Positions 18,276 through 32,222 are shown, numbered from the stretch's first letter. The stretch is DNA of 64,000 nucleotides from Cyanophyceae cyanobacterium (GCA_050331735.1 JBHJGN010000077.1:1-64000), one strand, 5' to 3'. A program made the numbers and translations. Notes: generated by a model from the sequence alone, not told the origin.

Positions 18276-19586
18276 TTACAGAGCTTCTACCAACTTTTCT
18301 TGAGATTTCTTGACTTTTGAACACCAGTTTTTGTATCTATGCAAAATTTCTGCGTAGGAAACAGTGGACTCATAGAGAGCCTCAAATAGTGGTGGGAAAA
18401 AACGTTTGGGAAAGAATCGATGCAGAACTGTAGCGACACGCTCTTTAATAATAAACTCAATAAACAATGGTTTAGATAAAGGAAGAGTATTACTACTAAG
18501 CTCGCTCGCCGCGTGAGTATCAGCCAAACGGCAAGTCGTAAATTGTTCTAGCACCAGCTTTAAGTCGTCGGCATATTGATTCAAAAGCTGGTTGAGAACA
18601 ACCACATCCTCAAGAGCGCAATTGCACCCTTGACCAAGAGCGGGGGATACAGCATGAGCAGCATCGCCAATGAGTAAGGCGCTATCGGAATAGTGATAGT
18701 GGCTACAGCGAATGGTTAACGTAGTGGCAATAGGTCTTTTGAGAAAAGCTGCCGCTTCTGATTCAGGCATGAGTTGACCGACTTGGGGAAAATTTTGCTC
18801 AAAGAATTGCAGAACTTCTGCTTCGCTCTTAAGAGCAGTGACTCGTTGATCTCCTCTGGGAAAGCGAATAATCCCGCTCATTGTGCCGTCAGCTTGATGC
18901 AGCAGAATGACTCCGATGCTGCCATCTAATCTCCAGGCATGAATCTTACTCGGTTCAAGGGCAATCTGGAGTTTTTCATTGCTCCCAGAGGGCAGGAAAA
19001 CTGATTTGTAGTCATCAGAAACGTATTTTTGTTCCAATTCAAATAACTTAGTATTTAAAAAATGTCTTCTCACAACAGAACGTGCTCCATCTGCTCCCAC
19101 TAAGAGGTCATAAGCAATAGATAAATATTCTGGTTCTGTTGAGGCTAGATTTTGAAAATTTGCTGTCTTCGCGTCTAAGTCTATATGGGTACAGGAGCAT
19201 TGAAAATATAAATTTAAGCGGGAATTGGCAAACTTTTGTAGGGTATTTAATAAGACTTTTGTAAAGTCAGTGCGATCGAGGGCGAATAAGGGCTTATTTC
19301 TGATAACAACTATCTGCTTCCCATTTTGCTGATGAACAATATTCCCCCACATCTCTACACTGATCGCTAAAACGGCTTCTTCTAAACCTGGTATTTTCCG
19401 TAAGGCGTTCATTCCTCTGCCGCTTAAACTAATCGGAAAAGTTCGAGACTTAGAAACGGATACAGTTCTCGGATCGGGGCGACGCTCGTATATATCTATC
19501 TGATATTTGTTATCGCGGGCCAGTAAATAGTGAGCGAGAAGAAGGCCGCTTGGTCCGGCACCAACAATGACAACTTTTTTAGACAT
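18276..19586 (-). CDS. FAD-dependent monooxygenase, kynurenine 3-monooxygenase-like
   Basis: GAGPSG, GADGARS and GDAAHAVSPALGQGCNCALED; start at MSKK. Confidence 0.85.
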   Translation of the reverse strand: MSKKVVIVGAGPSGLLLAHYLLARDNKYQIDIYERRPDPRTVSVSKSRTFPISLSGRGMNALRKIPGLEEAVLAISVEMWGNIVHQQNGKQIVVIRNKPLFALDRTDFTKVLLNTLQKFANSRLNLYFQCSCTHIDLDAKTANFQNLASTEPEYLSIAYDLLVGADGARSVVRRHFLNTKLFELEQKYVSDDYKSVFLPSGSNEKLQIALEPSKIHAWRLDGSIGVILLHQADGTMSGIIRFPRGDQRVTALKSEAEVLQFFEQNFPQVGQLMPESEAAAFLKRPIATTLTIRCSHYHYSDSALLIGDAAHAVSPALGQGCNCALEDVVVLNQLLNQYADDLKLVLEQFTTCRLADTHAASELSSNTLPLSKPLFIEFIIKERVATVLHRFFPKRFFPPLFEALYESTVSYAEILHRYKNWCSKVKKSQEKLVEAL

Positions 19587-19767
19587 ATCCAGCGTTTCTA
19601 ATGGTTTAAGCAAAATATTTTATTGTTAGTGGTTAAGCTTGTTTTTAACTAACCACTACCCCAAGCTCAACTTCTCAAAGTGCAACTAATGAAGTAGATT
19701 GGATTTTACTTGGGTTTTCTTGAGTTAGAACAATGTATGTGATTGATTGTCATAAGGTATACAGGAT

Positions 19768-19950
19768 TCATGGTAATAATTTGATGTACTCTCTTCCTCG
19801 ATACTTAAGAGTAAAACCGTTTTTAAGCGTTGCATTCCTCGTCTTTCCAATCTGATAAGAGACTCCCCGATACTTGCCATTAATCGTTTTATCGGTTGCT
19901 GAGCGGGTTAAGTTAGATTGGTAAGAAATACCGCGATAAATGAGCTGCAT
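19768..19950 (-). CDS. DUF4278-like small protein
   Basis: MQLIYRGISY...GKYRGVSY...LKYRGREY repeats; AAGGAG RBS. Confidence 0.8.
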   Translation of the reverse strand: MQLIYRGISYQSNLTRSATDKTINGKYRGVSYQIGKTRNATLKNGFTLKYRGREYIKLLP

Positions 19951-20044
19951 CTTTTTCTCCTTAAATTTTCGTGTTGTTTTTTTAATGGCTACCAAGCGAA
20001 CTAACTGATGCACTTATAGCTAAAACGATGGCAGGTTAAAGAGT

Positions 20045-22075
20045 TCATCTAAAGGTTGTCGGAACAGAAACAGTAGACACCCGATTTTGAGCAAAATGTT
20101 CTAATAACATGCGGTGATAAAATACATAGCTACCACCCACTTTTTTCATCAACAGTCGTTCTGAGGCGTAGTCAAGAAAGTGAGCTAGATTCCTAGGAAT
20201 TAAACCCTTAGCCCATAATATAAGTCGTAGGTTGACGTGTTGAATGCAGGCCATTCCGCCTCCAAAAAGTAGCCCTAAAATCAGTCCCCAACTGATTACA
20301 GAAGTGATTGACTTTAATCCTTTAGGAAATAAACTAATCGGAAAAGGAAACAAAATGATTGGGATCAAAATTAGCCAACTAGCTAATGCGACGATCGCGG
20401 CATTCGTGACCGATTTCCGAATACCTTGGTTAGGGATAGTTTTTGTCTCTATTTCTGAGCCTCTTAGCCCACGGATTAATCCGATAATTAGTCCTAAAAT
20501 TACTCCTAAAAATAGTCCAAATACTATTATTGTTAAGCCATTGCTTGGCTCTTTCCAAGTCAGGTAACACCACACTACACTAATCGGGGACAAAATTCGA
20601 CTCCAGCTTAGTCCATCCCTTAAACCATTAAGCAGATCTTTTCGCGTTTTTTTCCAAGGCCACGTCAAAGTTTCAAAGGTTTTTATTTCTGCTTTATCGC
20701 TTCCAAACCATAACAAAACAAGTCCCCATGTTACTCCGTTGATCGCTAATACTTTAAAAAGGTTAATTTTTTCGTTATGCAAGTCTAAAACATAGCCTAG
20801 TAACAAGATTAATAGAACAACCAGCATCCCCATCAGTATACTTCCCACTCGATAAAGTCTTCTTTGGAGATTAGGCTCCAACCAATAGGGCTGCATTCTC
20901 TCAATTAAAAAGACAGATTGAGCTCCCTGAGACATCCGCTGTGCCAGCCAAGTTAGCCAGTATATTGACCTATCTTTCTGGTATTGCTGAACTCCTTTAC
21001 GCTTGAACATCCGATCAATATAAGTATCGAACAGGTGATGACGGCGTTCTTCACTTGAGCAAAACTGCTGTAATAGATCTTCTACTGACCAATCTTGATA
21101 AGCAACACTCATAATACTGAGAATTAGAGGAGTTTGGGCAAAACGTTCTAATTCTCGATCTTGCTGTAATAGCGTTCTTAAGCCAGCGAGGGAATCACCT
21201 GCTTCTGCTAAAAAACGATCTACTTGTTTTTTTGAAAGAGGTTTAATACAGATAGCACTGCTAAGTTGCAAACGCGCTGTCAGTGCCTCATAATCCTCGA
21301 CTCGGCTACAAATCACCATCTCAGTAATATTATGAGTTGTGATAAATTGATTTAAAGCTCTAACGCAAGCGTTGCGCTTTCCAGCTTGTACTTCATCTAA
21401 TCCATCAAGAAATAGAATTAGCTGTTCCTGTTCAATCCAAGGTTCGCTTAGCGTTTTGGGAACTTGATATTTATCTTTTAGTTCTTCAATTAGCCATTTT
21501 TCTATGGGTTGCTGCTTGTATTCCCAAGAAGATAAGTTAAACACTACGGGGATAGGCTTCGTTAAATCTTTTTCGGTTTGAGCGATCGCTTTTTTGGCTA
21601 GCTGTAATAAAGCAATCGTTTTTCCTGAACCAGGCTCTCCTAAAATTAATAGGGTTTTACCTTGTCCGGTTTGATTCAAAATATCTGTTGATTTAAGTTG
21701 GTCAAAAGACTTATCCAAGTCTATTGCTATATCTTCAACGCCTGTAAAAGGTCTAATTACCGCACTTGAATTTTTTTCCCAGTCGAGGTTAATGACATTA
21801 TTTCTATAGAGAGAAGAGTTGAGAAAACCCTCGATCCAAGACTCTTTAACTTTGCGCAATAAGGTGATTCGCTGTCTATATTCGTGTTGAGTTAATACTT
21901 GGCGCACTACTGGAGTTTGACCTAACCAGTCCAGATCATTCGTGACGCGATCGCGATATTGCTCGCGACTGAGAATGGTAATGTTGTGATTGTGAACAGT
22001 GTTATTGTCACCAACCGCAAAGCCTTTTGCTGAAGCTTCAAACCTTTGATTGTATTTAGCACTACGTTCAACCAT
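20045..22075 (-). CDS. NACHT NTPase with N-terminal amyloid-like motif and C-terminal transmembrane region
   Basis: Walker A GEPGSGKT, PVVFNLSSW, Walker B LFLDGLDEV, PLILSI, several TM helices and GGSYVFYHRMLLEHF; GGAG RBS before MVERS. Confidence 0.9.
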   Translation of the reverse strand: MVERSAKYNQRFEASAKGFAVGDNNTVHNHNITILSREQYRDRVTNDLDWLGQTPVVRQVLTQHEYRQRITLLRKVKESWIEGFLNSSLYRNNVINLDWEKNSSAVIRPFTGVEDIAIDLDKSFDQLKSTDILNQTGQGKTLLILGEPGSGKTIALLQLAKKAIAQTEKDLTKPIPVVFNLSSWEYKQQPIEKWLIEELKDKYQVPKTLSEPWIEQEQLILFLDGLDEVQAGKRNACVRALNQFITTHNITEMVICSRVEDYEALTARLQLSSAICIKPLSKKQVDRFLAEAGDSLAGLRTLLQQDRELERFAQTPLILSIMSVAYQDWSVEDLLQQFCSSEERRHHLFDTYIDRMFKRKGVQQYQKDRSIYWLTWLAQRMSQGAQSVFLIERMQPYWLEPNLQRRLYRVGSILMGMLVVLLILLLGYVLDLHNEKINLFKVLAINGVTWGLVLLWFGSDKAEIKTFETLTWPWKKTRKDLLNGLRDGLSWSRILSPISVVWCYLTWKEPSNGLTIIVFGLFLGVILGLIIGLIRGLRGSEIETKTIPNQGIRKSVTNAAIVALASWLILIPIILFPFPISLFPKGLKSITSVISWGLILGLLFGGGMACIQHVNLRLILWAKGLIPRNLAHFLDYASERLLMKKVGGSYVFYHRMLLEHFAQNRVSTVSVPTTFR

Positions 22076-22091
22076 TTTAAGTCTCCAGCAG

Positions 22092-22463
22092 CTAAGAGCC
22101 AAATGTATTTGTTTGAGTGTTGCGATCGCCGAATTGACCCCCTTTAACTTCCCCTTGAAACAGCATGTTATATTTACCTGCTGCTGTTTCTTTAGGATCT
22201 AACTGTTTTAGTATTTCCTGAGCTTTTTCAACAATTTTCTCGTCTCGATCGGCACCAACCTCAGTTAATTTCTTTTTGAGTGGAGCTTCATAGGTGTCAG
22301 GGTCTTTTTCGTATTCTTCTAAAACCATTTCTGCTTTTGGTTCGCCATCAAATTTATGCTTAATTAAAGTTTTTAAGCCTTGATAAGCATCTGGAGCAAC
22401 ATCTCTAGCCGCTTTTACTGCTCCAGCAACCAGTGCAGCAAGAATTAAAGAAATTGGTTCCAT
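22092..22463 (-). CDS. Bell-like helical protein with C-terminal RHIM/BASS-like amyloid motif
   Basis: MEPISLILAALVAGA...DAYQGLKTLI N-terminus; C-terminal GKYN..F.G.VKG.QFGDRNTQTNTF. Confidence 0.8.
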   Translation of the reverse strand: MEPISLILAALVAGAVKAARDVAPDAYQGLKTLIKHKFDGEPKAEMVLEEYEKDPDTYEAPLKKKLTEVGADRDEKIVEKAQEILKQLDPKETAAGKYNMLFQGEVKGGQFGDRNTQTNTFGS

Positions 22464-22617
22464 TACTCATTATTCCTCTGTTAGTTCAATTTTTGGAGTT
22501 GAATTATTCGCTAGATTCAACCCGAACGATAATTTTAAATCTGCAACAAATTTAAAGAAGTAAAGGAATAGGAGGTTTTCTGATTTAATTACACGCCATA
22601 TCTGCTATCTGCGTTTA

Positions 22618-22702
22618 ATATTAATTTGATTCTTTATCCCTCGATCTCATAAAGCTCATTCCGAAGCTCTTGAGAAATCTCATCTAAAAACTCATAGAAA
22701 AG
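22618..22702 (-). promoter_or_regulatory. Repeat-array promoter upstream of the Bell-NACHT operon
   Basis: CTCAT units on + at 22646, 22655, (22667), 22679 and 22691; minus-strand -10 TAATAT at 22623-22618. Confidence 0.6.
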
Positions 22703-22708
22703 TTGGTC

Positions 22709-25700
22709 TTAAACAAAGATCGATTTATAAATGCGGTTCTGAACTTTTAAAGTTCCCTGTTGCTTAACGACTAGCCCCGATAACAGCAGTTCTCTTTCCT
22801 CGGGGCTATTATCTGAAACTATTGCACCTCGGTGTAAAATTTGTCGATAGAGTTCTAGTAGTCGGACGGACTGTTTGCTCTTGAGCAGGCGATCGCGGAT
22901 CGTTCTCAAATGCTCGGGTTCATCCTGATATTCCCAATTCTCGACGATCTTGGTTCGCACCAAGTTTTCGAGCCACTCGGCTTCTTGGTTAGCAGGGATT
23001 GAAGAGGAAGCATCGCGGATAAGTTTGCAGAGCTTTTGGGTTAAAAAGGGCTGTCCGTTCGTCCAGGCAAACACTTCTTTGAGCAGCGTTTGTGGATTAT
23101 TCACTTTGTCCATTAATCCTTGCAGCAACGGTTGCGCTTCATGCTGTTTAAAGCCCTCTAGTTGAATCGCCTGACCGATGTTAAAGGGGGTTCTTTGATA
23201 GTCGGTTGCTAAATCGCTCGGAGTAGCGACACCAAAAAAAGCAAAGGTTAGGCGTCGATACTCTGGATCGATACTGCGCTGATTGTAGCAGGAGCGTATC
23301 AGCGCCAAAAAGTCATTAACGGGAAAATTCAGGCTTAAGAGGCTATCAAGTTCATCGATAAAAATAACTAGATTGGGAAGAGCATTATCTTGGCACTCGA
23401 CTTCAACTAACAAAATTTCTCGAATAAACTGACTCAATTTTTGTACTGGAGAAAGATCTTCTTGCTCTCGCCACCAGGTTTTTAAATCGACTGTCCTCAG
23501 CAAACCAAAGCCATACCATAGCTCTACGGCTAATCCCTTATACCATTGTTCGGGCGTAACGCTTTCGCTGCCAATCCGAGTCAGATCGATCGCTCCGCAG
23601 CTAAACCCTTCGTGCTGGAGGTGACGCATCATGCGCACCATCAAGCTTGACTTGCCCATCTGCCGAGGATTGAGAACATGACAAAACTCTCCTCGTTTTA
23701 ACGCTTTATAAAGACAGCGATCCGCCGAGCGTACCACATAAGTCGGGGCATCCATCGGCAAACTTCCCCCCACTTGATAGTCAAACTCAGAGGATTGTTC
23801 GGCACTTCTGAGCAGTTCATTTTCAAACATGAGTTCTGCTTGAGTCGCTTGGAGAATTTCCAAGGTTTGCGATAGCTCTTGAGTGCGTTCTGAAACTCGT
23901 TGTTCGAGGGTGCGATTGTAGCCTGCTAGCTGTTTGTAGAGACGGGCATTTTCGATAGAGATAGCGGCTTGAGCGGAAAGAATCTTTAAAACTTCTACGC
24001 GATCGCTAGTAAAGGCACCGCTGGTTAAATTATTTTCTAAATAGAGAATCCCGATCAGTTGATCTTGATGAAGCAAAGGAGTACAAAGAATCGATTTGGG
24101 GTGAGTCGCCACTATGTAAGGATCGCCGCTAAACTGTTTTGCCTCAGTCGCGTTGTTTAGCACAACGTTTTTGTGGGTGCGGGCAACATAGTGAACGATG
24201 GCAACGGATAGAATTGGTGCTTGGCAATCGTCTACAGAGTCAATGGCAATTGATTGCAGAACAGCCACCTCATCAGCCTCTACTGCTCCTCCCGCTTCAA
24301 TTGTTAAGTGATCCTCGTTTGCTAGAATCAGAAAGCTTTTTTGAGCGCCAGCATTCTCAATGACAGTTTTCATCAAATTTTTGAGCAATTGGCTCAGCGC
24401 GATCTCCCGCGAAATTGTCTGCGAAGCTTTGATAACGCTGGCTACATCTAATCCTGCCTGGGTCAAGGTTGAAGATAAGCGGTTGGTCGATTCTGAGGCT
24501 AAATGTGGGTATCGTTGCTCTAGGTGCTTCACCTTGGCGTGTGCGCCCCATCTTTGGTAGGCATAATGAGCATCCTGTATGTAGTGGCGAGCAACATGAT
24601 TCTCCTGAGCTAGGTAAAATTGACCAGCCAGTTCGCAGGCAAGAGCTTCTTCATTAAGATAGTTGTTTTCCTGAGCCAGCATAATAGCCTGGTCATACTG
24701 CTCTCGGGCTTCTTGAACTTGCCCCAACACTCGGCAACGTTCTGCCTCGACTAAATGAAGCTTGTGTAAAAAATTCATGGGAGCACTTCGCGCCCACGTT
24801 CGTATCTGCTTTTGATTACTGGCTACTTTTGCTAAAATTTGTTTCTGTTCAACGGCTAAAGACTGAGGGTAGACCGCCAGTCGTGCTAAAGAGTCATAAA
24901 AGTAGAAGAGGGGACAAAGCAGCGTTCCTGTAGAGGTGTCTACATAGGGTTCAGCACAAACAGCATTTTCAAACGCTTCCTGATACTGATTAAACAGGTA
25001 GCAGAGAATTAGTTTGTTGAGATACAGATAGTAAATAGTTGAGCGTTGATTTCTTTGCACATAGAGAGGAAGTTCCTGTTCTTCGTTATAAACCTCCCCG
25101 ACTAGACGGTAGGGTTCGTCTTCTCCAATCAGGTTCAGAACAATTTGATGGATCAGAGTGTCGTTTCTGAGCTGATTAATGGTACTGCTATAGGTAGTGA
25201 TTTCCTGCTCTAATTCAGGTAGGGGACGAGCAGCGCTGAAATAGGAAAGATAACAATAGATTTGGATAGATAGAGCGGCATGTTCAAGATCTCCCGTGGC
25301 TAAACCACTGTGATAGGCAGCTAATAAGGCGCTAAACGTCTGGCTAATGTGGAATTTCCCAGGAATTGTAAAATAGGTGGTCACAAAGAGGGTCATCGCT
25401 TTGAGTTCTTTCGCGTTTAACCGCTCTAACAGACGCAAAGCAAGCTGACCGAATTGGTAGCCAAGCTCAAAGTTTGCGGCTCTACAGAGAATCAATCCGT
25501 AATTCGCATAGGCATGGGTATGAGCAACAGCGTTGCCATAGTGAAGAGCCAAATTAATTTGGGCAAAGATAATGAGCGGCAACAGGTGAGGACGGGCTAT
25601 ATAGGCGGCAGGGCAGAGAGTGAGTAGGATACGGGTAGCGGCAATTTTGGTCGGATCGCTCATCAAAGGCGCATCCAGTAAGTCTTGAGGCTGTTTTTGT

Positions 25701-28330
25701 GCCAAGGATTGTTGCAGCGTCTCGAACCCCAAGCTCACGTCAGATTCAGAAGGCTGCGTCGGTAAATTCACGCCGAGGATTTTCAGCACCGAGATGCCAA
25801 GCTGGAGGGCTTCGGTAAATTTTTTCTGGGCTTTGAGCGCTTGGATTTCGATTTCGTGAACTTTCACCTGCTCTAAGTCAGATTGAGCCTGTTGCCGTAC
25901 CGCCTGAACTAACTGCTCCATCCGCCTAAAATCGTGGTTGAGATAGGCTGCCTCTGCGGCGGCGGTGTGTAGAGCTAGCGATAGGTCGTATTGCTGCCAG
26001 TTTGCTTCAAGTAGTTCTAAGCCGACGGTAAAGTAGGTGAAGGCAGATTGATGGGCGGCTGATGCTTTCGCGATCGCTCCTGCCTGGAGATTTAAGCGGG
26101 CGAGTTGCTCTCGCTCTGGACGGTGGGAGAGCAGTGACCGTCCCTGGTTGAGCTGATTAACAATCGTAAAGGGGTCCGATTCTAGGGGGGTGTGTTTGAG
26201 CAACCGTTGACCAATCTGCCAATGCACAGCCTGGGTTTCTGCCTGGGGAATGAGGCCATAGACCACCTGCTGGATGCGATCGTGGGCAAACTTGTATCCG
26301 GCTGATTTTGATAAACCGTTTACCTCCAGCGACCTTAGCGTGTAGCTGTCGTTCAGGGGTAGAATATATCCCTCGGCGATCGCTGCCTCTAAATCTACTG
26401 CTACTTCCCGAGCCGTTTTTTCAGAGATAATCGCTAATCGGTCTAAAGTAAATCGGTTCCCCAGGCAGGCGGCTAATTTCAACGCGGCCTGAGTTGGTGG
26501 CGTTAGCTGTTTGACCTTCTCCGCCATCAATTGGGCGACATTATCCGCAATCGGCTGGGTTTGAATCTGCTTCAAATCCCACCGCCATTGCCCTCGTTCG
26601 TCATCAAATTCGATCAGCGATCGCTCGTGTAGAGATTTCAAAAACTCGCTGACAAAAAAAGGATTGCCCCCCGTTTTTGCCTGTAACATCGTTGCCAGCG
26701 GACTGGCGGTGGTGGAGTCAACCCGAAAAGTATCGCTGAGCAGTTGGCGAGTATGGGTTTGGGTTAGGGGCAACAGCGAAATTTGATTAACGGTGATAGA
26801 AGACTCGATTTCCCTTAAAGTGAGCAGGAGCGAACTCTCGCTTACTTCGTTGTCTCGATAGGCTCCAATCAGCAGCAAGTATTGGCTATTTCCAGCCGTG
26901 AATAACCGTTGAATAATTTCAAGCGTGGCTCGATCTGCCCACTGCAAATCGTCTAAGAAGATGACGAGGGGATGTTCCGGTTGAGTAAAAACTTTAACAA
27001 AATCTTGCCATACCCGATGAAAACGATTTTGCGCCTCTGTCGGCGCAAGGTTTGGGAGGGCTGCTTGGGAACCGATAATCAATTCTAAGTCGGGCAGAAC
27101 ATCGAGCATCACCTGTCCATTTGCCCCCAAAGCCACCAACAGTTTTTCCCGCCATTCTGCAATCTTGGGTTTACTTTCAGTCAGTAGCTGTTGGATTAAT
27201 GACTGAAACGCTTGAATTAGGGGAGCATAGGGAATGTTGCGCTGTAGCCGCTCAGATTTCCCAGAGATAAAGTAGCCTCGCTGACGGGTCAGGGGCTGAT
27301 ACACCTCCTGCACCAGAGCGGATTTACCCACCCCTGAATGTCCGCAAATCACCATCATTTCGCTAGCGCCTTGGCTCACGCGATCGCAGGCAGCTAATAA
27401 GCGAGCCAACTCTGCTTCTCTTCCGTAGAGCTTTGGGGAAATTTGAAACCGATCGGAAATATCCACTTGACCTAATGGAAAGGAAGCAATTTGCCCTTGG
27501 GTTTGCCACTGATGCCAACAGTGTTCCAAATCTGCCTTGAGTCCAAAAGCCGATTGATAGCGATCTTCGGCGTTTTTGGCCATCAGCTTGAGCACAATGT
27601 CTGAAATTGCCGGGGGAAGGTTGGCATTATGTTGATGGGGAGGAAGCGGAGATTTGGCAATATGGCCGTGAATTAATTCCAGAACATCCTCTGTAGGAAA
27701 GGGCAACCGACCAGTGAGCAGTTCATAAAAGGTTACCCCGAGAGAGTAAAAATCCGTTCGCTCATCGATTGCCCGATTCATCCGCCCCGTCTGCTCTGGG
27801 GAAATATACGTTAATGTTCCCCTTAATACCTTTGGATGACGAGTTGAGTTTTTCGGGGTCAGTAGGAGCGAGCTACCGAAGTCGATCAGTTTGACCTGCT
27901 CAGTCGCGGGACTCCAAACAATATTGGACGGGTTGATATCGTTGTGGACAACGTGCTGTTGATGCACTTGGGCAAGAATACGAGCAAGTTGAATGGCAAG
28001 CGGGAGAAACTCCGTGACAGAGAGAGGGCGCTCTTCAATCACCCGATCGAGAGCTTGCCCCCCAAAATCCTCTAAAACCAAGAGCCAGCGGTCCTGCTCA
28101 TTCTCTAAACCATAGACTTGTACTACCCCTGGCAAGTTAAGTTGATTGAGTTTTTTGGTGGTTTCATACTCCTGTCTAAACCAAGCAATTTCCTCGGGTG
28201 TCGGGTAAGGCTGTTTGAGAAATTTGAGAATGACGGGTTGACAATCTGCTAATCGTCGTCCGCGATAGACTTGCGAGCTAGCGCTTTCGTGAAGCTGTTC
28301 GATAATTTGGTAGTCTAAAACACAAATCAC
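22709..28330 (-). CDS. Ser/Thr kinase - STAND ATPase - TPR-like - GAF - AAA_35 multidomain protein
   Basis: [11 protein letters not shown] and [12 protein letters not shown] (kinase); GHSGVGKS and DDLQWAD (ATPase); ILYLENN...QAAISIENA (GAF); YQVGGSL..DAPTYV and RQMGKSSL (AAA_35). Confidence 0.9.
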
Positions 28331-28348
28331 GACGCTCTCCGTTTGCTT

Positions 28349-29878
28349 CTAGAACCAGGTCAGATGTCTAGGCTGCCGTTGTTGCCGTTCAGCAGATCGC
28401 TTTTGCAGTGCTTCTACCAAGGCTTTCTCACTTGTGTCTTCTGGGGAGGGACCGTACAAAATCCCGACAACCTTTTTCATCTTCTCCACGTCGTAGTGAT
28501 GTTCGCCATGTTCGTGTTCGTGACTAGGACCAGCCCAAGGGGAATCGGTGTGAACCCACTGCCCTTTCTCGAACCAATCTACGCCTTGAATAACCGTCTT
28601 CACCACCTCACCGGGATGAGCCGCTTCATGGGCGCTGAACCAGTCATTGATGCGGTCATCCACCCAGCCGTGCAGCCGCCAGAACACCGGGTTGACGTGA
28701 GAGGAATAGAACTCGCCCAAAAAATCGTATTCGGGGCGATCCCAAAAGTCACGGATGTCGTTGTCTTCCCGTCCAGATGGCAGTACGCCGAGCGCGGGAT
28801 GATAGGGGGCTGATGTCCAACGCATGTGCATATCGTTATGAACCGAGTACTCAAGCAGTGCACCAAGTTCTCCGAGCGAGAGGGTACTGAGGTACTGTTT
28901 GTTCTTAAACTCCCGGTCCCACCACGCCATCCGCGACCAGTAGTGTCCGTCTGTCTTTAATAGAGCAATGCGGCGGTTGGTGATTTCGTCGGTCGGATCG
29001 ATCCAGGCTGGAGGAATAGCAAATCCGTCTGGGTTGCCGGGGGTGGGGAGAACTGGCGGGTCTTCCTCGTAGTCTGGTTCGGCTCCCACAGAACCGGGAC
29101 GGGGAATCGTCGGCCATCCGGCGATCGGCTCCTGTCCAGCTTCCTTGATCTTGCGATTCACTTCTTGAATCATCTGTCGGTGCATGAAGAGAAAGTCCTC
29201 ACCGGAGCCATTGCGAATTAGGGGAGCACCTGTCGCATCGACTGACGGACGTTCTTCTTCGCCGCCTGGTTGCCATCCAAGTTCTCGAATTGCCTGTTTT
29301 TTCTCTTCGTTGATCATCGGATTAAGCCACAATCCGCGCACACTGTGCCAAACGGTATGGTGGAGCCGATGGTGTTTCGATGCCAGCATCTTGAGAACTT
29401 CCTGTGGAAGCGGAATGACCGTTCTTGGCTCAGGGAAATCCCGTTGAACAGCAACGAAAGAGGCTACTACGCCAGCCGGACTATCCTCGCCATGCTCCAC
29501 AGTTCGGATTACCGTTCCTACCAACGCAGGTCGCTGATTCTTTCCGTTCGGCCACTCAGGGACAAAATAGGCGACGTAATCGTACACCCACCCCTGGGCA
29601 AATGTTCCCAACACGCCAGTCCCTTGAAATCTTAGGGAAAATGGGTTGCCTGTCTGGAGCGAGCCTTGGAGTGAGAGTCGGGCGTCATTCATCTTCGGCG
29701 GGTCACTCCTAAAGGCAAGCTGTCCGCGAATCGTCCCAGGCTCGGCAGCCGCCTCAAATACCATCTCACCTTCCCCAAAGATGAGGTTTTTGAGCTTGTC
29801 ACAATCATCGCTGACTGGCTCAGTAATGTTGTTATAGCTGCGGTAGGTCCAAGCCCCGCTCAGAAATTCGTTGGTCAT
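28349..29878 (-). CDS. PvdP-like tyrosinase (N-terminal beta-barrel + type-3 dicopper domain)
   Basis: HRLHHTVWH, GEDFLFMHRQM, HNDMHMRW and SSHVNPVFWRLHGWVD copper-site motifs; AGGAG RBS; no signal peptide seen. Confidence 0.78.
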   Translation of the reverse strand: MTNEFLSGAWTYRSYNNITEPVSDDCDKLKNLIFGEGEMVFEAAAEPGTIRGQLAFRSDPPKMNDARLSLQGSLQTGNPFSLRFQGTGVLGTFAQGWVYDYVAYFVPEWPNGKNQRPALVGTVIRTVEHGEDSPAGVVASFVAVQRDFPEPRTVIPLPQEVLKMLASKHHRLHHTVWHSVRGLWLNPMINEEKKQAIRELGWQPGGEEERPSVDATGAPLIRNGSGEDFLFMHRQMIQEVNRKIKEAGQEPIAGWPTIPRPGSVGAEPDYEEDPPVLPTPGNPDGFAIPPAWIDPTDEITNRRIALLKTDGHYWSRMAWWDREFKNKQYLSTLSLGELGALLEYSVHNDMHMRWTSAPYHPALGVLPSGREDNDIRDFWDRPEYDFLGEFYSSHVNPVFWRLHGWVDDRINDWFSAHEAAHPGEVVKTVIQGVDWFEKGQWVHTDSPWAGPSHEHEHGEHHYDVEKMKKVVGILYGPSPEDTSEKALVEALQKRSAERQQRQPRHLTWF

Positions 29879-29963
29879 GATGTTCTCCTTGGTTCGCGGT
29901 CGGTTATCAGCTTGCGGCTATATACTCTACAGGCATGAGCATGGCGGCTTTAAGCTGTGCTTC

Positions 29964-30028
29964 ATAGTATTCTTGCTCTGAGCCTTTTAATCTCATAAAA
30001 CTCATAGAAAAGCTCATAAAAAACTTAG
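29964..30028 (-). promoter_or_regulatory. Repeat-array promoter upstream of the tyrosinase-kinase operon
   Basis: CTCAT units on + at 29992, 30001 and 30013; minus-strand -10 TACTAT at 29969-29964. Confidence 0.6.
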
Positions 30029-30039
30029 GCGATCGCCCT

Positions 30040-31419
30040 CTAGCTCTCAAAAACCGATGTGATGGACAGATGTTGTCCCTTGGTAAAATACTGCCGATAC
30101 AGTTCGCACCCGGCGATCGCGCGATTGCCGCAAAGTTTAATTAACCCCATACTGCATAGCTTGTGGGTTTGAATCGGATCTAAGGAAACAGGTTCAGCGG
30201 CATTTAGAACCTGATGAAGAGCCTGCATCAACTCAGGCTGTTGTTCTAGGGTGGCCCAATGACGCTGCAGGTGATGAGCATATATTCCTGTCGCCGTGAA
30301 CGCCGTTTTTAGCAGTTGCGATAGCGTTATTTCTCCCCGATTCAGATGATAGAGTGCCAGATTCACCAGTGCAGGATGACCCCCGACTAGAGACATCAGT
30401 TGCTGGGCTTCTTTGTCATCCGTCCAGTCCAGTCCGTAACGTTGGGCTAGGAGCTGTACTTCCTCTGGAGTAAAATCCTCTAACTGAATGGGTAGCCCGA
30501 CATTGAATGGGGATTGGTTACAGTCGAGAGGAACGTAAATTTCTGTTGAGTGAACCACAATCAGACGCAGCTTTCGCCAAATCGGTAATCTTTTTGTTTC
30601 TTCGTACCACGACCGCAACAGCGGTAAAAAATCCTGCGCCACCTGCGGATGCTCGAAAATCTGGTTCACTTCATCTAGCGCCAAGACGAGGGGAGCGTCG
30701 ATTGACTCTAATAAATAGTCTCGAAAGTAAAGGGTGCAGCTCAGATTACTGCCCAAATCTTTGTCCCAATACTCGTCTAGCATCGGTTTAAGCTCAAGCT
30801 GGCGAGAGATACTCGTACACAGCCAGCGCAAAAATTGATTCAAATTACCCAAAATTGATTGCTCGACTTGCTCTAGGTTCAGGCTGACGGTATGGTATCC
30901 CAGGTGAGAGGCGTAGTTAAGGCTCCTCAGCAGCAGTGAGGTTTTCCCCATTTCTCTCGGAGCCTTAATCCGAATTAACGCTCCTGATTTTCTCACTTCT
31001 CGCTCGACTTGTTCCTTAACAGAAGAGCGTTCGAGGTAAAAGGGAGAGTCAAGCGGAACTGAGCCGCTGGGGTAGCAAGGTGACGGATCCTGGTTGACAT
31101 GGGGGAACGCTTCCGCCAGAGGTGACCTTAAAGGTCTTGTTTGAGGGTCGGGTCTGGTGGTGACGTAAGACTCCAGTAATCCCCGACAGTTCTTTTTGGT
31201 CACGCGCTGACCGACGACCTTAGAAAGTCGCTGATACAGCTCTGGGGCAGCAACGTTGGTAAAGTAGCCAGGACTATAGCCTGCCTCGATTGCAATCTGG
31301 TTGTAGGTTTTATACTGCCAAATACCCTGTAGGATCAGCATTTCTGCGGGATTGAGGGGTCGATTTTGGCTCTCAATGAGCTGGCGGTCAACAATTTTAC
31401 AGAGATTATCTAAATTCAT
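30040..31419 (-). CDS. N-terminal HTH (vWA-MoxR-associated type) + AAA_35 STAND ATPase
   Basis: LILQGIWQYKTYNQIAIEAGYS...LSKVVGQRVTKKN (HTH); GSVPLDSPFYLER, APREMGKTSL, LALDEV, SPFNVG and GGHP (AAA_35). Confidence 0.85.
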   Translation of the reverse strand: MNLDNLCKIVDRQLIESQNRPLNPAEMLILQGIWQYKTYNQIAIEAGYSPGYFTNVAAPELYQRLSKVVGQRVTKKNCRGLLESYVTTRPDPQTRPLRSPLAEAFPHVNQDPSPCYPSGSVPLDSPFYLERSSVKEQVEREVRKSGALIRIKAPREMGKTSLLLRSLNYASHLGYHTVSLNLEQVEQSILGNLNQFLRWLCTSISRQLELKPMLDEYWDKDLGSNLSCTLYFRDYLLESIDAPLVLALDEVNQIFEHPQVAQDFLPLLRSWYEETKRLPIWRKLRLIVVHSTEIYVPLDCNQSPFNVGLPIQLEDFTPEEVQLLAQRYGLDWTDDKEAQQLMSLVGGHPALVNLALYHLNRGEITLSQLLKTAFTATGIYAHHLQRHWATLEQQPELMQALHQVLNAAEPVSLDPIQTHKLCSMGLIKLCGNRAIAGCELYRQYFTKGQHLSITSVFES

Positions 31420-31528: not shown

Positions 31529-31682
31529 TAATACCATTTACCGAAAGTAGTCAGATAGTTCCCAAACTAACCAACAATTGGAGGTTCAAGGGGAAAGAGC
31601 TGCTGTGCTTCCCTTTCCCCTTGACCCCTTCCCCTTTCCCCCAACTCATCAAGTCTCCTATTACTTTTTCTAATTGGTATAA
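31529..31682. mobile_element. MITE-like element, copy 1
   Basis: Ends TAATACCATTTACCGAAAG ... CTTTTTCTAATTGGTATAA; homologous along its length to the copies at 49053 and 49259. Confidence 0.75.
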
Positions 31683-32065: not shown

Positions 32066-32222
32066 GGGATGGGGAAATGTCCGGTGCGGAACGGGGAAAG
32101 GGAAAAATATTGCTGTGCGACGGCAAAGAAATACAGGGTCAAGGAGCAAACTGATTGATGTCTCCCTTTCCCCCTTACCCTTACCCTTTTCCCTTTTCCC
32201 GCAGCTTCGCTGCTTCCCGGTC
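32066..32222. repeat. Composite dispersed repeat, copy 2 (overlaps hydrolase 3' end)
   Basis: TGTCCGGTGCGGAACGGGGAAAGGG, pyrimidine heptamers and GCAGCTTCGCTGC (32201-32213). Confidence 0.75.

Follow-up and report, generated by a model that had tools for sequence, protein, structure and literature searches.

A sensor kinase ending in AAA_35 and an adjacent AAA_35 protein with a probable helix-turn-helix domain: a candidate two-protein STAND-type relay in cyanobacteria

A locus of Cyanophyceae cyanobacterium (GCA_050331735.1, JBHJGN010000077.1:1-64000; this stretch of 64,000 nucleotides (nt) is called the window here, and all coordinates refer to it) encodes a serine/threonine kinase whose output is not the histidine kinase typical of such proteins but an AAA_35 domain (PF14516), next to a second AAA_35 protein that probably starts with a helix-turn-helix (HTH) domain. 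The locus is probably a two-protein relay of the STAND kind (ATPases of signal transduction that have numerous domains), composed of a sensor that carries one type of AAA_35 as a nucleotide-binding oligomerization domain (NOD) and a partner that joins another type of this domain to the HTH and lacks a sensor of its own. We call type A the group of AAA_35 domains that score high with the Pfam model, and type B the low-scoring, divergent group. The region of 22709-31419 is filled by three open reading frames (ORFs), all on the minus strand, with an 18-nt spacer between the tyrosinase and the kinase genes and a 161-nt spacer (29879-30039) between the type A and the tyrosinase genes. The features are as follows (aa, amino acids).

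22709-28330, minus strand: sensor protein of 1873 aa, GTG start, with Pkinase, AAA_16 STAND, helical repeats, GAF, coiled coil and type B AAA_35
27554-28312, minus strand: Ser/Thr kinase domain, residues 7-259 (Pfam Pkinase)
23954-24397, minus strand: GAF domain, residues 1312-1459 (Pfam), followed by the coiled coil that is the site of the output swap
22715-23767, minus strand: NOD of the type B AAA_35 with intact Walker A and B, residues 1522-1872 (Pfam)
28349-29878, minus strand: PvdP-like tyrosinase-family protein of 509 aa, the variable "cargo" enzyme (NCBIfam NF051454)
29989-30028, minus strand: upstream array of three TTT(T)(C)TATGAG direct repeats (sequence)
30040-31419, minus strand: type A partner of 459 aa, with predicted N-terminal LuxR-like HTH, disordered linker and canonical AAA_35 NOD
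30082-31074, minus strand: type A AAA_35 NOD, residues 116-446, with nucleotide-binding domain (NBD), helical domain and winged helix (Pfam, Foldseek)
31156-31419, minus strand: five-helix N-terminal domain, residues 1-88, predicted to be a LuxR/NarL/GerE-like HTH (model; precomputed label PF26355)
22646-22701, minus strand: second array of the same repeats (sequence)

The Sensor Kinase and Its Swapped Output

An earlier, sequence-only reading of this DNA had proposed for the 1873-aa protein a layout of kinase, STAND, TPR, GAF, coiled coil and AAA_35, and this is confirmed by the ORF coordinates and by the Pfam matches, to Pkinase (residues 7-259, 122 bits), AAA_16 (300-488, 157 bits), GAF (1312-1459, 52 bits), and AAA_35 (1522-1872, 115 bits against a cut-off of 27, model positions 4-329 of 331); Pfam gives no match to HisKA or HATPase_c in this protein. 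That such layouts, known as HstK-like, usually end in a histidine kinase was part of the same reading, and one example is presented by the same genome, in which a paralogue of 1972 aa (L133:2402-8320, contig C39) is 47% identical to the sensor kinase over residues 4-1489, remains collinear with it through the coiled coil that follows GAF, and then continues into HisKA, HATPase_c and Response_reg. The output swap is therefore real, and AAA_35 occupies the exact place usual for the output of a phosphorelay.

The combination of Pkinase, GAF and AAA_35, for which a domain-architecture search had been suggested, is frequent. With homologues collected at E <=0.001 (5,743 for the kinase C-terminal query, 120 of them listed, and 6,031 for the type A query, 119 of them listed), it is shared by 99 of the 120 relatives listed for the last 374 residues of the sensor (76-83% identity), with Nostoc, Scytonema, Fischerella, Pleurocapsa, Symploca, and Moorena among their sources. 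Among the kinase orthologues compared, the type B AAA_35 domains are 58-81% identical, and among the relatives listed the type B module also ends a protein of HAMP-PAS-HisKA-HATPase-receiver composition.

The kinase domain of the sensor keeps the Lys, HND and DFG motifs, as read from the translation. In the paralogue, HQS is found instead of HxD and DFS instead of DFG, and its kinase looks catalytically dead because of these replacements. This difference is one reason to consider phosphorylation as the coupling between the two proteins, with the kinase modifying the 459-aa protein, for example in its linker, and with type B AAA_35 serving for docking or self-assembly only, or having an unrelated role. 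The linker of the type A protein (residues 90-113) is disordered and rich in Ser, Thr, and Pro; however, type A proteins are also paired with type B proteins devoid of a kinase (CHASE2 and PAS proteins, and fusions of type B, cyclase and type A, see below), so that what all these pairs have in common is the type B NOD. We consider coupling of this sort unlikely as the explanation of the pair, and phosphorylation can act alongside a relay that operates through the NODs.

Two Types of AAA_35 and Their Fold

In the 459-aa protein, AAA_35 is matched over residues 116-446 at 504 bits (model positions 1-330). The genome (99 contigs, 5.57 Mb) holds eight AAA_35 matches, four at 429-505 bits and four at 67-118 bits, and the type A and type B domains share only 21-27% mutual identity; the two flavors are a real bimodal split. 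The motif variants from which two flavors had been proposed, YQVGGSL..DAPTYV in the kinase and GSVPLDSPFY in its 459-aa neighbor, are both present and conserved. The Walker A GK is found in all 38 aligned type A and all 32 aligned type B sequences; the aspartate of Walker B is kept by 36 of the 38 type A sequences and by every one of the 32 of type B. Judged by these residues, both NODs appear to be active.

The two types differ in what they are joined to. Type B goes with domains of the sensor kind: its carriers in this genome are the sensor kinase, one protein with CHASE2, one of PAS-PAS composition, and one of 536 aa, and in the listed database relatives it is fused also to WD40, to TPR, and to a hybrid histidine kinase in its entirety. 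Outputs, namely HTH and GGDEF, are what type A is joined to, with one of the four type A proteins of the genome ending in GGDEF. At this locus, sensor and effector are not found on one NOD: type A has the HTH effector, and the type B NOD resides on the sensor protein.

The model of the 459-aa protein (mean predicted local distance difference test, pLDDT, 84.5, from an alignment of 38 sequences), in which residues 90-113 are disordered, is matched best by Foldseek to the archaeal ATPases SSO1545 (PDB 2fna, E 3e-9) and PABY2304 (PDB 2qen, E 8e-9), with TM-scores of 0.60-0.62 on the target and 14-15% identity. Further matches are NRC4/NRC resistosomes, Avs3, Sr35, ORC/Cdc6, Apaf-1, and CED-4, and the alignments cover the P-loop NBD, the helical domain and the winged helix, the three parts of a NOD core. 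By these matches of its model to the cores of STAND proteins, nucleotide-binding leucine-rich repeat receptors (NLRs) and ORC/Cdc6, AAA_35 is a STAND/ORC-like NOD. Sequence searches against solved structures give for the 459-aa protein a sole, irrelevant match to Clp1 at E 0.79, and for the type B domain solely a 40-residue P-loop stretch of RecA.

Such a fold also calls to mind an NLR-like conflict or immune module, triggered by phage or some other invader, with type B as sensor, type A as helper, and the HTH or another effector as executor. The nearest folds are those of STAND proteins including Avs3, plant resistosomes, Apaf-1 and CED-4; yet the output of the pair seems to be a LuxR-like HTH, not a killing domain, and the sensor is a GAF/TPR/kinase protein with a histidine-kinase paralogue. 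The distribution is patchy, with one plasmid copy, as would suit an immune system, but both partners are 70-80% identical across cyanobacterial orders, unlike fast-evolving immune sensors. A NACHT gene is located just downstream, but a counterpart of it was found at none of the 26 kinase loci compared below. The N-terminal domain of the 459-aa protein also starts an NB-ARC-like STAND protein, and one UniRef name among the listed type A relatives ("vWA-MoxR associated prote...") links this domain to the vWA-MoxR-associated conflict-system proteins (PMC7159879, a paper with 0 occurrences of AAA_35). Against these stand the conserved operator-like arrays before metabolic enzyme genes, and an immune role appears rather unlikely.

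Pairing of Type A and Type B Genes

The kinase loci were defined by 24 type B matches in open frames of at least 1860 aa, from 20 of the 301 genomes sampled in the phylum, with up to 20 kb fetched per locus. Two loci were added from a related-locus search, making 26 loci altogether; run with single proteins, that search gave mainly paralogues at 50% identity, and only 2 of its 36 loci reached 80%. As the genomes are kin and not independent of each other, counts are given without P values.

A type A AAA_35 domain (at least 298 bits) is encoded inside 16 of the 26 fetched loci, and in two more genomes the type A gene lies 7.8 kb (G029) or 9.6 kb (G144) off, shortly beyond the part that was fetched, which places it within 10 kb at 18/26 loci. 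The tyrosinase, the NACHT gene, the 123-aa ORF and the M20 neighbor of the window are conserved at none of the 26; the kinase/type A pair is the conserved core of the locus. At the level of genomes, 17 of the 20 with a kinase-AAA_35 orthologue possess a type A protein at least 54% identical to the 459-aa protein, and, conversely, a type B domain at least 56% identical to that of the kinase is present in every one of the 22 sampled genomes that have a type A protein of this kind. Co-occurrence of the orthologues, one of the two checks on which the sequence-only reading had staked its proposal, is thus seen both at the locus and in the genome. As a proxy for presence in the same genome, the length of the longest contig was matched by eye, and for 27 of the 119 type A orthologues listed it equals that of a listed kinase orthologue.

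The pairing extends beyond the kinases. Type B modules are present in 96 of the 301 sampled genomes. Five near-complete genomes together hold 28 intact type B genes, of which 20 lie no more than 10 kb from a type A gene (0.42 expected under uniform placement), and 24 intact type A genes, of which 16 lie within that distance of a type B gene. One example is a second contiguous pair in the genome studied here, of a type A gene (L001:5682-7070) and a gene for type B with CHASE2 (L001:6958-9828). Other examples are single ORFs in which type B comes first and type A second, of 904 aa with a cyclase domain between the two (L057), of 751 aa (L060), and of 738 aa (L061), which by their sequences are classic Rosetta-stone fusions. 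The paired NOD genes are found together, one with sensing and one with output domains.

A complex of the type A and type B domains, for which a multimer prediction had been proposed as a test, is predicted at an interface score (ipSAE) of 0.58, with 0.00 for the best of three controls; the runs agree in at least 72% of the contacts, and the partner pLDDT is at least 81. The mark applied is reached by 116 of 157 solved complexes and by 2 of 215 mismatched pairs, and scores of up to 0.60 were obtained for only 18 of those 157 solved complexes and for both of the mismatched pairs that pass. The predicted contact therefore passes the mark and is clean in the controls, and passes only weakly. Neither of the two checks has refuted the proposal, which comparative genomics supports as far as it reaches.

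These data bear on yet another explanation, that the two proteins have no direct contact and are separate regulators, kept together only because both act on, or travel with, one mobile cargo locus. In favor of it are the cargo enzymes, which vary while the flanking regulators stay, and the lower G+C of the region (0.40-0.43 at 18-24 kb), which splits a neighborhood of purine catabolism genes; some orthologous pairs, moreover, are unlinked. Against it are the fusions of type B and type A in one polypeptide, and the adjacency of the two at 20 of 28 genes against 0.42 expected, with many different sensor domains. The complex score, weak but control-clean, and the lack of a sensor domain of its own in type A also speak for contact, and regulators without any contact are an unlikely explanation.

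Several genomes have type B genes in tandem runs of 3-5, spaced by 3.5 kb and each encoding about 1190 aa (G148:C114, G119:C10, G216:C10, G005:C25), and each of these runs adjoins one type A gene. One output protein may serve several sensor paralogues at such runs.

The N-Terminal Domain of the Type A Partner

The N-terminal domain of the 459-aa protein, folded alone, gives a pLDDT of 87. In a structural search with this model (VIA-wide, 48,161 chains), the top 14 matches are all DNA-binding domains of the LuxR/NarL/GerE kind, including RcsB, VqmA, NarL, TraR, DegU, DosR, and GerE, with Z values of 6.5-7.4, which are middling (below 8), and with root-mean-square deviations of 1.7-2.9 Å over 63-68 residues. 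By its model, the domain is probably a LuxR-like HTH, which is short of proof. The HTH that had been assigned to this neighbor of the kinase is thus probable as to fold, and is not backed by significant matches in Pfam and Foldseek (see below).

Across cyanobacteria, orthologues of the type A protein show 69-77% identity, and PF26355 is combined with PF14516 in each of the 119 listed. The same N-terminal domain, of about 90 residues, starts all four type A proteins of the genome and one NB-ARC-like STAND protein. AAA_35 is counted among the accessory domains of cyanobacterial proteins bearing sigma70 region 4 in a 2024 survey (PMC11119718). In one genus (g29), a different small domain replaces the LuxR-like N-terminus of type A (L044:4617-4925, L047:750-1058), with sub-threshold matches to HTH domains of the Cro/C1 (XRE) type (HTH_26, E 0.03-0.06); these matches hint at an analogous replacement of one HTH by another.

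Repeat Arrays as a Candidate Operator

The 161-nt spacer between the type A and tyrosinase genes reads, on the gene strand, TTTTTTATGAGC TTTTCTATGAG TTTTATGAG. It contains an array of TTTATGAG direct repeats in triplicate, with ATGAG at 0, +12, and +21, which begins 12 nt past the type A stop codon and ends in a repeat some 114 nt ahead of the start of the tyrosinase gene. The second array begins 8 nt past the kinase stop codon and is followed by a conserved TAATAT(T/C)AAACG(C/T)AGATAG segment. With a site defined as ATGAG with TTT in the five preceding bases, and an array as at least three sites within 50 nt, the 5.57-Mb genome holds 550 sites but only two arrays (0.0015 expected), and these two flank the tyrosinase-kinase operon. 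A repeat array had been claimed at 29964-30028; it is real, with limits of about 29989-30028, is unique in the genome, conserved, and located upstream of the kinase operon. This position, upstream of an operon that holds the kinase gene, would fit an autoregulatory loop.

Two related loci (L008 and L040), with type B domains 80% identical to that of the window, have the same arrays on both sides of an enzyme-kinase operon, two in the former and four in the latter by the pair rule, even though the enzyme differs from the tyrosinase of the window (RPE65, or a protein without assignment); at both, an array plus the TAATAT(T/C)AAACG(C/T)AGATAG segment is also present downstream of the kinase gene. 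When contigs of one genome per species were searched with the pattern TATGAGNTTTNNNATGAGNTTTATGAG (22 specified bases), 65 stretches were found in 59 distinct regions, of which, by record title, 55 are cyanobacterial, two are from an "uncultured bacterium" and two from other bacteria. Twenty-four of the 59 regions have an orthologue of the 459-aa protein (58-78% identity) and/or a kinase/type B orthologue within 9 kb, and there the array often lies directly past the type A stop codon, as in the window. Downstream of the arrays, typically at 70-180 nt, genes are found for RPE65, an amidohydrolase of a YcaO cassette, YcaO, TP_methylase, and a LodA-like oxidase, and these are the classes that are found just upstream of the kinase orthologues.

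Some further observations concern the repeats. Long tandem arrays of TTTATGAG with a period of 21 nt are present at many Moorena loci (L075, L083, L084, L097, L100, L115, L119, L123, L131), with no AAA_35 gene within 9 kb, and they represent either a much expanded regulon or an unrelated repeat family. The repeats (AATGAGT)n in L059 and (ATTCATA)n in L044 and L045 contain ATGA[GA], but they are heptamer microsatellites and were rejected as instances of the array. The genes downstream of the second array (region of 22464-22645) differ between genomes, and the 123-aa ORF of the window is not similar to the one that follows the array in L040; the target of this second array may be a small RNA or a short ORF that is not annotated.

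The Cargo Genes

The tyrosinase-family protein (509 aa) matches NF051454 (PvdP) at 307 bits, with an equivalog cut-off of 625, and is thus a relative of this family and not an equivalog. Elsewhere (for example, L044, L057, L008, L053, L042, L060, L063), the place of this gene is taken by genes for RPE65, radical SAM/SPASM proteins, YcaO with an amidohydrolase, or YcaO with TfuA, and the cargo gene often overlaps the start of the kinase gene by 4 nt. This suggests swappable oxidative or peptide-modifying cargo under one conserved control unit.

Proposed Mechanism and Points Against It

In the relay that we infer, a signal read by the kinase, the TPR or the GAF part of the sensor would free its type B NOD into an ATP-bound, assembly-prone form, and this NOD would nucleate co-assembly with type A NODs, by analogy to a sensor NLR and its helper NLR. 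The HTH domains so clustered would bind cooperatively to the triple TTTATGAG repeats upstream and just downstream of the operon, and transcription of the cargo enzyme gene and of the sensor gene itself would shift. An autoregulatory loop, either positive or negative, would result; the contact between the NODs, the binding of the HTH to DNA, and the direction from sensor to output are all parts of this proposal. [quoted passage not shown]

Several observations weigh against this relay. As to the contact, the complex score falls within the weak band of the benchmark, where two paralogous AAA+/STAND modules may score from their likeness to solved rings, and it is for the A-B pair alone. The P-loop of type B is intact, unlike that of many sensor NLRs of paired systems, and the kinase domain offers another route, by phosphorylation, to the same partner. 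As to the pairing, 8 of the 26 kinase loci have no type A gene within 10 kb (at five of these, L008, L045, L048, L055, and L056, the flanks are ended by contig ends), and in G074 a distance of 650 kb on the same chromosome separates the type A gene from the kinase gene.

The HTH domain and its candidate operator raise further doubts. Foldseek gives for the N-terminal model no match at E <=0.001 (E-values of 0.5 or worse), and Pfam, in a set that does not include PF26355, gives for the N-terminal 119 residues only HTH_AraC at E 0.2, with no match to the GerE or Sigma70_r4 profiles on the domain; the HTH assignment is rated as probable because the Z values stay below 8. The strict three-site rule holds at 1 of the 26 kinase loci and the pair rule at 2 of 26, and thus the array motif tracks the closest subfamily only, a restriction to be expected if HTH and operator co-vary. 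The 35 of the 59 array regions with neither partner include 18 with the 21-nt tandem arrays of Moorena, and thus the motif exists also as a plain repeat. No sigma-70 promoter was called on the minus strand in the spacer (29879-30039), and in the scan for promoters and terminators the overall counts were no higher than in shuffled sequences.

Bacterial signaling is generally taught in terms of phosphorelays, Ser/Thr kinases and second messengers, where STAND regulators of a single chain, MalT among them, count as a side branch; pairs of sensor and helper NODs are known from plant and animal immunity. The locus described here may be the clearest entry to such a sensor/helper logic serving gene regulation in bacteria. 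On a more tentative note, pairs of type A and type B AAA_35 could, with somewhat less confidence than we have in the relay at this locus, represent a general and modular two-component STAND relay of cyanobacteria, with type B transmitters on many sensors and type A receivers on many outputs, in which nucleated hetero-oligomerization would replace phosphotransfer and specificity would reside in the NOD interface; the pair of the window would then be a transcriptional branch, with TTTATGAG at 0, +12, and +21 as the operator of an exchangeable cargo for oxidation or peptide modification. If the relay is real, it is widespread, judging from type B in 96 of 301 genomes, and it would explain thousands of annotations as "AAA-like domain-containing" proteins. 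The variable genes to which the pair is linked, for tyrosinase, RPE65, YcaO and radical SAM, could also point to unknown signals or natural products.

Comparison with Known Systems

The closest parallel in gene regulation is that of MalT of Escherichia coli and the LAL regulators (large ATP-binding regulators of the LuxR family), in which a STAND NOD is likewise joined to a LuxR-type HTH. However, in MalT the sensor (arm plus SUPR) and the C-terminal HTH reside in one chain. In the pair of the window, the HTH is predicted at the N-terminus, the NOD is AAA_35, there is no sensor region after residue 446 of the 459-aa protein, and the signal is proposed to come from another, paralogous NOD, which resides on a separate protein, the sensor. 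The boxes of MalT are direct repeats in arrays, with a core like GATGAG, and the triple repeats of our locus, upstream of the linked operon and conserved across genomes, may be binding sites of a like kind.

Another parallel is presented by paired NLRs (NAIP-NLRC4 and the plant NRC network), in which one of two paralogous NODs is for sensing and the other for output. The two genes of such a pair are often neighbors, and the helper assembles on a nucleus formed by the sensor; the fold matches of the type A model also include NRC resistosomes. These are eukaryotic immune receptors with death or channel outputs, in which the P-loop of the sensor is often dispensable, whereas in the pair of the window both P-loops are conserved, the output is a probable HTH, and a signaling sensor comes with metabolic cargo genes.

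As to the sensor, its relatives are the cbSTKIII "dual protein kinases" of filamentous cyanobacteria, such as HstK (Alr2258), described as having an N-terminal Ser/Thr kinase and a GAF in the middle (Zhang et al., 2007; PMC2176072). The window kinase agrees with these in its N-terminal Pkinase (7-259) and its GAF (1312-1459), but lacks their defining C-terminal HisKA/HATPase and has AAA_35 instead. In the 2007 survey, AAA domains have 0 occurrences, and members that cluster with the family but lack HisKA, such as Tery_3863, are listed (PMC2176072); these may be the AAA_35-ended variant. A third system, the TOMM system kinase/cyclase fusion (TIGR03903), also has a sensor of kinase, AAA_16 and repeats with a swapped output, beside YcaO-type genes. 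Residues 300-727 of the window kinase match this model at 160 bits, far under the cut-off of 706, and orthologues of the kinase adjoin YcaO cassettes; the output in the window is AAA_35 and not a cyclase, however, and the cargo is a tyrosinase-family gene. Finally, the archaeal ATPase family (Pfam ATPase_2; SSO1545, PABY2304) provides the best structural match of the AAA_35 module, but its members are stand-alone archaeal proteins with 14-15% identity, and we know of no pairing in this family.

In the literature covered, which excludes papers available by subscription only, no description was found of paired AAA_35 proteins or of a kinase ended by AAA_35. What appears to be new at this locus, as judged from its sequence, is an HstK-type kinase as a sensor partner with a mapped swap junction, an HTH output, and a candidate operator.

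Genomic Surroundings

The block from the NACHT gene to the type A gene (18276-31419 of the window), within which the G+C content is lower (0.40-0.43 at 18-24 kb), splits a set of genes for purine/ureide catabolism, with GntR and an AH_C-domain protein on one flank (17-18 kb), and an M20 amidohydrolase, a permease, an FAD monooxygenase and an OHCU decarboxylase on the other (32-37 kb). This block has the look of an inserted island. The gap of 760 nt upstream of the type A gene contains two G-rich blocks, at 31606-31640 and 32160-32200, made of repeats of the GGGAAAGGG type.

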